A DNA stretch of 32,000 nucleotides. Source: an uncultured archaeon. GTDB taxonomy: Archaea > Asgardarchaeota > Lokiarchaeia > Sigyniarchaeales > Promethearchaeaceae. Position 1 is the first letter of the stretch. Each line of letters opens with the position of its first letter. Position numbers and translations under genes: made by a program. Under the pieces are notes generated by a model, which worked only from the letters and a program-made list of their open reading frames with translations, was not told where the DNA came from and ran no database searches. Where the stretch lies: contig CAYRPF010000030.1 in assembly GCA_964426185.1 (NCBI GenBank), positions 2,983-34,982 of the forward strand, given 5' to 3'. Positions 762 to 10,702 of this stretch are shown one piece after another.

Positions 762-864
762 GGAACCGTTTTCTAGCCAGGTAAAATAAATTTGAATATT
801 TTTGGTATATAAGAAGCTGGACTTCTAATCCAGTTTTTCGCAGGTTCGAATCCTGCCGGTTCCA
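762..864 (+). tRNA. tRNA-Arg(TCT) with a 27-nt intron (782-808) in the D-loop
   Basis: Acceptor GGAACCG(762-768)/CGGTTCC(857-863); D stem TTCT/AGAA; anticodon stem CTGGA/TCCAG with loop CT-TCT-AA; T arm GCAGG-TTCGAAT-CCTGC; no encoded CCA; T-rich tract follows; BHB motif at the intron borders. Confidence 0.93.
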
Positions 865-3402: not shown

Positions 3403-4563
3403 CTAAACATCATCTGAATTAGAAGTAATACTTCGATAAGAATAAGCCCGAGCAATGTATCCTTTGGTTTCTTTTGGTAAAAGTCCTTTTAAATACTCGG
3501 GAAAGCTCGCAGTTAAAACTATATCGGTCTTCAGTAAATATAAGTGCTCACCTGCATATGAAAAATCTTGTATAATATTCTTCTGTTTTAAAAATTCTAG
3601 ATTTTCCAGAAGTTCTTTTGATGAATCTTCTGAATATAGAGAAAGAATTTTATCTTTGGCAAGTGGTCCTTGCCGCAGCTGTGTGATAATGTTATATTTC
3701 TTTGAATCGGCAAAAATAGTGAATAATTCCAGTGAATCCATCGAAGAAGGGCTATATGTTTCAAAAAAATCTCGGACTTCATTGATATAAATTTCTGTTA
3801 AATCAGACATTTCAGGAGAATCTTCTTCTTCTAAATCTATCACGCAATTGGGAGGTACACGCATAATCGAGACATCTTTTACCAAAAGTACATAAGAATC
3901 TTGTCCAATTGAATTAACAAACACAAATTTTTGTTCTTGTAATTCTTCTATGATTTTTTCAAAAGAATAATTGGGAAAAACCACTTCAAACCATTTCTGC
4001 AAATCTTCATTCGAAATAGGACCTTTGGATAGTTTTTTAATTACATTGAAGATCTCCTTTTTACTCATTATAGAAGCCCATTTTTCCTCTTCGGTTCGTT
4101 CCCTTAATTCTTCTACCCCAGTCCAATAAAGTTCTTTGAGCCAAAATCTGATATTAGAATTAAACTCTTTTATTTTCGGATAATCTGCTTCAGATACTTG
4201 AGTATCTTCAGTACTATAAAAAGCTTTAAAGAGATTTTTCTGAGTTTTCATTTTTTCAGCAAATTCTCGAGTGAATTCTTTAAAAATAGCTTCTTCCATT
4301 TGATTTGGAGTTTTATCAATAACAAAGGATACCATTAACATTTCTTTATTTCCACGAGCCCATTCACTGTTAATTTCAAAATAATAATTCATGGAAGCTA
4401 GCTTTCCAAATTTGTGTGTAAAATATCCCTCTTCGTAAATTTGATCCATGAATTCTGCCAGACGACTCTTTTCATCCTCTGTTAGAATATCTTCAGGGAA
4501 GCTGTAATACACAATGGGTCCAATTTTACGGTGGAAATAACTAATAGCGACTGATGCTTGCAT
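3403..4563 (-). CDS. Longin/uDENN (NPR2/folliculin-like) domain protein with two predicted C-terminal winged-helix repeats
   Basis: N-terminal ISYFHRKIGPIVYYSFP and WARG pattern typical of uDENN/NPR2 longins; two wHTH-like repeats (IKKLSKGPIS.., ITQLRQGPLA..). Confidence 0.65.
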   Translation of the reverse strand: MQASVAISYFHRKIGPIVYYSFPEDILTEDEKSRLAEFMDQIYEEGYFTHKFGKLASMNYYFEINSEWARGNKEMLMVSFVIDKTPNQMEEAIFKEFTREFAEKMKTQKNLFKAFYSTEDTQVSEADYPKIKEFNSNIRFWLKELYWTGVEELRERTEEEKWASIMSKKEIFNVIKKLSKGPISNEDLQKWFEVVFPNYSFEKIIEELQEQKFVFVNSIGQDSYVLLVKDVSIMRVPPNCVIDLEEEDSPEMSDLTEIYINEVRDFFETYSPSSMDSLELFTIFADSKKYNIITQLRQGPLAKDKILSLYSEDSSKELLENLEFLKQKNIIQDFSYAGEHLYLLKTDIVLTASFPEYLKGLLPKETKGYIARAYSYRSITSNSDDV

Positions 4564-6025: not shown

Positions 6026-6493
6026 ATGTCGAATCAACGAGATTATAACCAAGTTGAAATGGTTCGCTTGAAATTGTATATTCCACTTGAAAAATATCAT
6101 CAATGGATGCATTATTTGAAACAAAATCATCCTAATTCTCAATTTTTTACAAATTTTAGCAATTGGGTTCGCACAGCTTTAATTAAGCTTCCATCTCCAG
6201 GTGTATCTCCATTATTTCCCAAATCAATTGAAAATCTAAGTAATGATCATTCTGCCAGAAAAATGCTAGAAAAGGTGGTCTGGATAAAAAAATCAACTAA
6301 AATGTCATTATTGGAAAGGAAAGGTCATTTTTCTTTGAATAGTTACGTAATCCTCATTTTGGATATTCATACCTTTGGGATATCTTCATTTCAATCACTT
6401 ATCTATCAAATCTTGCAACTTCAATCCCGAGTAAATGAAATTGAAGAAAAAGTGAGAATAATAGATGAAAAATTAGTTTTTTTTAAGGAATAG
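6026..6493 (+). CDS. Putative tandem ribbon-helix-helix regulator with a C-terminal coiled coil
   Basis: RLKLYIP-helix-NFSNWVRTAL and KVVWIK-helix-SLNSYVILILD patterns; heptad C-terminus. Confidence 0.5.
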   Translation: MSNQRDYNQVEMVRLKLYIPLEKYHQWMHYLKQNHPNSQFFTNFSNWVRTALIKLPSPGVSPLFPKSIENLSNDHSARKMLEKVVWIKKSTKMSLLERKGHFSLNSYVILILDIHTFGISSFQSLIYQILQLQSRVNEIEEKVRIIDEKLVFFKE

Positions 6494-6555
6494 GCTCAGT
6501 GTGGGGCGACAATTTCATCTGCTTTGCATCATTTGTCATAGGTTCATCATTGCCC
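6492..6555 (-). ncRNA. Box C/D methylation-guide sRNA (predicted target 23S rRNA Gm2251, E. coli numbering)
   Basis: Minus strand reads GGGC-A-ATGATGA(C)-ACCTATGACAA-ATGA(D')-TGCAAAGC-AGATGA(C')-AATTGTCGCCCCACA-CTGA(D)-GCCT; terminal stem present; guide is complementary to UGGGGCGGCA. Confidence 0.85.
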
Positions 6556-6567
6556 AGAAATTATTAT

Positions 6568-6897
6568 TTAACAATATTCTTTGATACACTTTAGAAATTC
6601 GTATCCACGAGCTGATACTTTATAACTATCTTCTCCATGTTGTTCAATTAGTTTTAAATTCAAAAGAACAGGCATTCTTCCTGAGATACAAGCATGAGGA
6701 ACACCCGACATCATTTGGATAGAATCACGATTTTCTGCTCCACGTGCAATTGCGATAAGCATTTGAATACCAAATTCACCCAAAATATATTTATAACTGC
6801 GTAATTCTTCCAAATCATAGGAAACATCTGTTGAAGTTCCATCCATAAAATCAACTGGTGGTATTATAAGTACCAAATTTTTGAAATACTCAAACAA
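6568..6897 (-). CDS. Small winged-helix-like hypothetical protein (start may be ATG 6846)
   Basis: C-terminal LNLKLIE...YKVSARGYEFL is a typical wHTH wing pattern. Confidence 0.65.
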   Translation of the reverse strand: MFEYFKNLVLIIPPVDFMDGTSTDVSYDLEELRSYKYILGEFGIQMLIAIARGAENRDSIQMMSGVPHACISGRMPVLLNLKLIEQHGEDSYKVSARGYEFLKCIKEYC

Positions 6898-10009: not shown

Positions 10010-10702
10010 TTATAATTCTGGAACATTTTTTGATAATTTTACAGGTTTCGAAGTATCCGGTGCCTTTCCATCTCCAATTGCCTGATAAATGGCAGTTCGG
10101 CGCGCTAATTCCGAAAAAACTTGGTAAACATTCATTGCATTTTCATAAAGCGCAATACTTTCATAAACAATTGGATTCCACATATGTAGTGGATGTGATG
10201 GGGGATAAAATAGATTTTCTTGTTTCAGAATTTCTTCTACTTCTCTTTTCTTCATAGTATCAGGTAAATCTTGTTTATTAACCATAACTAAAAGCGGAAT
10301 GTCTGAAATTAATTTTCCTTCAGATACATTCTTTAATTCTTTTAATGCTTGAATGTTATCTTCCAATCTGCTACGTTGAGCATCAAACATTAAAATTACA
10401 CCATCAGTTCCTGTAAAAATTTTTTTACGTAAAGGACTGAAACGAGCTTGGCCAGCAGTGGTATAAACATGGTAAAAAACCTTATTCTCCTTTTTAGATT
10501 GAAATATTCCCCGATCAAAGTAAAGAGTAGAACCACTCGCCATCGCAATTTTTGTCAAAGTTCCTGTAGGTTCGACTGCATCGTTATATTTCTCTTTACA
10601 TAACCGATACAAACTATCGACGGCAGTAGTTTTTCCACTTCCAGCGCATCCCCAATAAAGTAACTTAACAAAAACTTCCCCATTTTTATACAATCGAACC
10701 AT
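10010..10702 (-). CDS. Small GTPase, MglA/Arf-like
   Basis: G1 GCAGSGKTT, G2 region TLYFD, G3 TTAGQ, G4 NKQD, G5 SIA. Confidence 0.9.
   Translation of the reverse strand: MVRLYKNGEVFVKLLYWGCAGSGKTTAVDSLYRLCKEKYNDAVEPTGTLTKIAMASGSTLYFDRGIFQSKKENKVFYHVYTTAGQARFSPLRKKIFTGTDGVILMFDAQRSRLEDNIQALKELKNVSEGKLISDIPLLVMVNKQDLPDTMKKREVEEILKQENLFYPPSHPLHMWNPIVYESIALYENAMNVYQVFSELARRTAIYQAIGDGKAPDTSKPVKLSKNVPEL

Follow-up and report, generated by a model that had tools for sequence, protein, structure and literature searches.

A gap of 74 nt (positions 6494-6567) in the window, by which we mean the whole 32,000-nt stretch of contig CAYRPF010000030.1 analysed here, raises the question of whether a guide RNA lies hidden between two protein-coding genes and, if so, which nucleotides it would direct for modification. 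From sequence comparison we conclude that the element at 6491-6556 on the minus strand is a genuine conserved box C/D sRNA of a Loki-type Asgard archaeon, an RNA of a well-known kind, and that, taken as a whole, it is very probably a dual-guide archaeal box C/D sRNA with one guide for the P-loop and the other for helix 89 (H89) of 23S rRNA. The preliminary description of this DNA had proposed a box C/D guide for the equivalent of E. coli G2251, a proposal with which the organism's own 23S rRNA, guide-rRNA covariation and a joint scan of eight lineages agree. The RNA was previously unannotated, and a literature search with little coverage of subscription journals turned up no article on C/D guide RNAs of Asgard archaea.

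The C, D', C' and D boxes and the terminal stem noted in the preliminary description are all present and lie, like every part given below, on the minus strand. The stem, now extended to 5 bp (four Watson-Crick pairs and one GU), places the ends of the RNA and joins its 5' arm (6552-6556), the canonical stem of a K-turn, to its 3' arm (6491-6495), which the convergent ORF (6026-6493) overlaps with its stop codon. Between the two arms follow a consensus C box (6544-6550), whose alignment columns are invariant or near-invariant, an 11-nt D' guide (6533-6543), a degenerate D' box (AUGA, 6529-6532) that most homologues place 1 nt farther from the guide core, a 3-bp stem with a 3-nt loop (6520-6528) that closes the C'/D' K-turn, a degenerate C' box placed by alignment with homologues (6512-6518), a 12-nt D guide (6500-6511) and a consensus D box (6496-6499). 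The RNA contains two K-turns, a terminal one in which the end C and D boxes combine with the terminal stem, as in archaeal box C/D sRNAs, and an internal C'/D' one, and its spacers of 11 and 12 nt fit the ~12 nt of that class. In the terminal stem, all four pairs have changed on both sides in 9-14 of 25 homologues with pairing kept, and the inner hairpin likewise varies in both strands and stays paired. Upon scanning for this C/D architecture, with a pattern relaxed once, post hoc, to admit the GU stem pair, we obtained three matches in the 3.26-Mb genome and none in four order-3 Markov genomes or in 300 shuffled windows. The same scan brought up two further box C/D RNAs in this genome, at C1:29066 (plus strand), with a 10-11 bp D' match to the organism's own 23S rRNA, and at C70:17025 (minus strand), with a 12-bp D match to it. 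No Rfam family reached its gathering score for the 6491-6556 element. Elsewhere in the window, a SNORD71-like Rfam match (4182-4265, minus strand; 26.3 bits, below gathering) lies inside ORF 3403-4563 and is probably due to chance.

Conservation in other Asgard genomes, which had been proposed as a check, is extensive: about 130 Lokiarchaeia genomes have a homologue, which, where its position was checked, almost always lies right behind the same wHTH gene. Using BLAST with the element stripped of its flanks, we found it in Candidatus Harpocratesius repetitus (G001), of the same genus as this genome (G000), in G002, G006 and Candidatus Lokiarchaeum ossiferum (G010), and in three genomes of family f3, each time behind a wHTH homologue. 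A box-plus-guide pattern matched 107 other Lokiarchaeia genomes besides the organism's own, with zero matches for the backward control, and the matches were spread over families f1 (8 of 13 genomes), f2 (1 of 1) and f3 (98 of 135); the G128 match among the 107 looks like chance. Pattern matches in G219, G314 and G372 lay inside ORFs and were taken as chance. Part of the guide is built into this pattern, which biases it; we therefore searched the genera that it missed with a covariance model and recovered about 20 more homologues in genera with a differing guide. Intact copies are present in two cultured species, Promethearchaeum syntrophicum (G011 C1:252950-253005, minus strand) and L. ossiferum (G010 C1:3324173-3324228, minus strand), as well as in Ca. 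H. repetitus. Two genomes of another Asgard class (f17) have, at L086:305-371 (minus strand) and L087:1978-2044 (plus strand), a P-loop guide before D, like the window RNA; their 5' guide differs and pairs with their own D guide. For G239 and G240, no 23S rRNA was found on which to place the 5' guide. A GTDB-wide scan for canonical P-loop guides returned chance bacterial matches only and was uninformative.

The RNA sits between the wHTH gene that ends at 6568 and the convergent ORF that ends at 6493. The wHTH gene (6568-6846, minus strand) lies upstream, co-oriented and 12 nt away, as had been described earlier; it is ArnR1-like by its atlas score (0.96) and the UniRef names of its homologues, the ORF has no Pfam match, and it is the last in a run of genes upstream of the RNA that encodes L15e, an RNA-binding protein, Rpp30, Pop5, an unknown ORF and the wHTH protein. 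Its synteny with the RNA is kept in families f1, f2 and f3, and this synteny, together with the conserved co-orientation, suggests that the RNA is probably excised from a transcript running through the upstream wHTH gene. A promoter scan of sigma-70 type was uninformative. Immediately upstream of the L15e run lies a gene for an Arf/Rag-like small GTPase (10010-10702, minus strand). A tRNA gene of the window (762-864, plus strand) escaped ARAGORN when the window was scanned and was assigned to Thr when the genome was; its anticodon arm reads Arg(UCU), and it has a ~27-nt intron in the D loop. Several intron-containing tRNAs on contigs C8, C13 and C39 also appear to be mis-assigned by ARAGORN, and a tRNA-Sec gene is located at C3:27670-27760.

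Turning to the targets, the D guide most likely directs 2'-O-methylation of the P-loop guanosine corresponding to E. coli G2251 (E. coli numbering is used throughout for P-loop positions). The organism's own 23S rRNA is found on contig C35, which includes the P-loop and ends before helix 89; its own 16S rRNA is not assembled. On this 23S rRNA, position D+5 (C6504) stands opposite G2251 (C35:122, minus strand), exactly where the preliminary description had put it. The 10-bp duplex with one G-U that it had given was obtained with the archaeal consensus as target and does not hold: guide positions 2-9 form 8 contiguous Watson-Crick pairs with 2248-2255 of the organism's own P-loop, followed by a U10.C2256 mismatch and by G-C, U-A and U.G up to 2258, that is, 8 pairs, a mismatch and 2-3 more. 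When checked against its own rRNA, then, the guide does pair and is centred on G2251, at the cost of a U.C mismatch. The pair that closes the P-loop in the organism's helix 80 (G000 C35:104-132), G2248-C2256, is the reverse of the archaeal consensus; all of f1 shares the flip, and G004 has additional changes. At least 9 contiguous pairs have been used as a guide criterion (PMC6009581), and the D duplex, with 8, falls below it. The D guide forms the expected Watson-Crick pair at N+5, yet passes this strict 9-bp rule only as part of a dual guide.

Comparison between lineages strengthens the P-loop assignment. Guide position 2 is C in f1, matching G2248 of its rRNA; in f2 and f3, whose rRNA carries C2248, it is mostly A and sometimes G. 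In G004, in which both helix 80 and helix 89 are divergent, the guide matches that genome's own G2248, C2256, U2257 and G2258, and a prediction set beforehand held, in that the syntenic G004 RNA found by the covariance model tracks its divergent rRNA at both targets. When the aligned 23S rRNAs of eight lineages were scanned jointly, the D guide had its top site in the P-loop, at a mean z of −4.6 (−2.85 for the runner-up), and the D' guide in H89, at a mean z of −4.2 (−2.0 for the runner-up). Cognate D and D' duplexes also beat permuted ones, with p-values that overstate the difference as the genomes are related.

The D' guide had been left unassigned in the preliminary description. By sequence and covariation it is a partner of the 5' strand of helix 89, which lies ~210 nt downstream of the P-loop in the catalytic centre, so that the window RNA carries complements to both the P-loop and H89 (2457-2466); H89 positions are given in what we take to be E. 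coli numbering, by our own alignment to the E. coli sequence. The target for this organism was read from the identical H89 of the same-genus genomes G001 and G002, its own contig stopping short, and the duplex (2457-2462 and 2464-2466) consists of 6 bp, an A.C mismatch and 3 bp, which at −9.2 kcal/mol is weak. The spacer follows lineage-specific rRNA changes, covarying with H89 at 2458, 2462-2465 and 2467, and in G004 it forms 9 bp with that genome's own H89 and brings D'+5 onto U2460. The register varies among the homologues. In 29 of 48, a single nucleotide lies between the guide core and D', so that Um2460 is predicted. A shared 1-nt deletion leaves zero nucleotides there in G000 and G001, so the U2460 register is lost in the window RNA and strict D'+5 (G6537) faces C2461. 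A further 16 of the 48, in f3, have 4-7 extra nucleotides and a D'+5 position without a target base, and keep the H89 complement. This pattern suggests that, at the H89 site, base-pairing counts for more than methylation, and it is in line with the chaperone role that has been proposed for guides with distant targets (PMC4644070).

Three other accounts of the guides were weighed against the dual-guide reading. The one that survives best, improbable as it is, holds that the RNA is a self-masked single guide, in which the D' spacer would pair with D guide positions 8-13, leave a 7-nt toehold for the P-loop and aid release. A 5-6 bp internal stem does appear in the MFE and consensus folds, with compensatory changes in G239, G240 and G014; U10 is retained in most of f1 despite its mismatch with C2256, the two guides of f4 and f7 are likewise complementary to each other, and 38 of 40 distinct eukaryotic U31-like RNAs (metagenome contigs L130-L183) keep GGU right after C'. 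However, the D' spacer tracks H89 at the covarying positions given above, the internal stem is weak (−4.4 kcal/mol versus −19 for the target), the folding energy of the whole RNA is no better than that of shuffles (z 0.23), and genera g2, g3 and g7 have either lost the stem or carry it broken, so that it is dispensable. The internal stem may be a secondary feature, one that could not replace the H89 target. As for the U31-like GGU, it could pair with positions 9-11 of its own guide, in the register of the Loki internal stem, and is too short to tell self-pairing from an rRNA partner.

A lower probability still attaches to methylation by the D guide of the helix-32 region of 16S rRNA, instead of or besides the P-loop. 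The 16S rRNA of the same genus offers 9 contiguous Watson-Crick pairs at −20.0 kcal/mol, slightly better than the P-loop, and in f1 the site pairs as well as the P-loop does. But the single f3 16S rRNA examined has a mismatch mid-site (−14.6), the g2, g3 and g7 guides fail at the 16S site, those of G003, G004, G008 and f17 fit the P-loop and not the 16S site, and the conserved A3 of the D guide pairs only with U2249; on these comparisons the 16S site would be no more than a side target for some members of f1. Least probable of all is a D' target in 23S helix 71 or in the tRNA-Arg(CCU) variable loop. Within this one genome these give the best matches, runs of 8 bp that include one GU, but helix 71 fails to track across lineages (mean z −1.3 versus −4.2 for H89), and H89 accounts for the guide variation. 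Two further D' candidates were dropped, namely tRNA-Met C34, with no match among the called tRNAs (no CAU tRNA was called in the assembly) and H89 explaining the guide, and an 11-bp match in the 23S trailer of G001, which is absent from G010 and G011.

Under the dual-guide reading, L7Ae would bind the two K-turns, and Nop5 and fibrillarin would assemble on the RNA. During large-subunit assembly the D guide would open helix 80 and bring G2251 to the fifth position from the D box, where it would be 2'-O-methylated; sequence and covariation show the target, and the N+5 rule predicts the chemistry. The H89 arm would, less surely, yield Um2460 in most homologues, and in this organism either Cm2461 or no methylation, with pairing as a second anchor. 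The genome encodes the machinery: the fibrillarin and Nop5 genes are adjacent on C39, and L7Ae is represented at the family level by two matches that are not told apart from L30e. RlmB was not found in this 92% complete genome, and the single SpoU-family protein is TrmJ-like.

RlmB makes Gm2251 in bacteria (PMC11542601), the same modification as predicted here, introduced by a stand-alone protein rather than with a guide RNA. In archaea, Gm at the equivalent position has been observed in T. kodakarensis (G2353; PMC12124282), and RNA guides for the site, alignment position G2520, have been predicted in three of seven archaea (PMC4644070). Those G2520-site sRNAs share the site and differ in their second guides (e.g. 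U2544, G2490) and in coming from thermophiles, not Asgard archaea; Pyrobaculum calidifontis sR36 has a P-loop-like guide before D, as here. Sac-sR110 of Sulfolobus acidocaldarius has the archaeal size and box layout of the window RNA, and we read in it both a P-loop and an H89 guide, but with the two swapped, the P-loop guide standing at D' and the H89 guide at D; the likeness is one of layout and guides, not of a demonstrated sequence family. Sac-sR110 was detected by RNA-seq and stands in the supplement of Dennis et al. 2015 without a predicted target (PMC4644070).

Eukaryotic SNORD31/U31, yeast snR67 and Giardia GlsR4 (RF00089, RF01177, RF02473) also address this P-loop guanosine, and do so through the N+5 rule. 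The earlier suggestion of an Asgard counterpart of snR67 is borne out for function, the guanosine being the same, and fails on clan score and guide position. The gathering score of the SNORD31/snR67 clan (CL00053) is not reached: snR67 scores 12.5 of 55 bits, and SNORD31 is not listed for the window and scores 11.2 of 40 bits for G239. The P-loop guide precedes D' in SNORD31 and GlsR4 and in this clan, as it does in f4 and f7, whereas it precedes D in the window RNA. The window RNA and snR67/U31 may or may not be of common descent. In the Lokiarchaeia families f4 and f7 (L205, L206, L208) the same two guides occur in reverse order at other genomic sites, and from this arrangement, together with those of Sac-sR110, SNORD31 and GlsR4, the window family is probably a circular permutation. 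Circular permutation and indel-driven target shifts are known in Pyrobaculum sRNAs (PMC6009581), where the sR56/sR57 families, with other targets, show swapped halves and indel-shifted targets comparable to f1-f3 versus f4/f7 and to 2460/2461; in contrast to Pyrobaculum, the permuted form here appears to replace the other rather than coexist with it, with one strong model match per genome. A broader scenario, which we consider rather unlikely, would make the P-loop plus H89 guide one old Sulfolobus-Asgard family and the direct ancestor of U31/snR67, permuted in Lokiarchaeia, with the H89 arm acting mainly as a non-methylating helix 80-helix 89 clamp in the assembly of the peptidyl transferase centre.

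With Gm2251 made by a protein in bacteria and guided by a snoRNA in eukaryotes, and with archaeal guidance already predicted, an Asgard guide was to be expected. Its practical value lies in the modifications it predicts, namely Gm2251, Um2460 in P. syntrophicum and L. ossiferum, and Cm2461 or none in Harpocratesius, and the homologues form a natural series in which to ask if the second guide persists for its pairing and not for methylation. The apical loop between D' and C' has a conserved UGCUC in f3 (e.g. L025, L097, L184-L201) and UGCCC in g2 and g3 (L207, L204). Wherever the H89 sequence of the lineage is known, this motif is complementary to its positions 2464-2468; the window copy lacks it. 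This complement is a possible extra base-pairing element, of a sort that occurs in yeast snoRNAs (PMC6124571). Finally, the 23S rRNAs of G067, G076, G078 and G082 (L046, L062, L064, L068) are apparently interrupted in or near helix 89, probably by rRNA introns.
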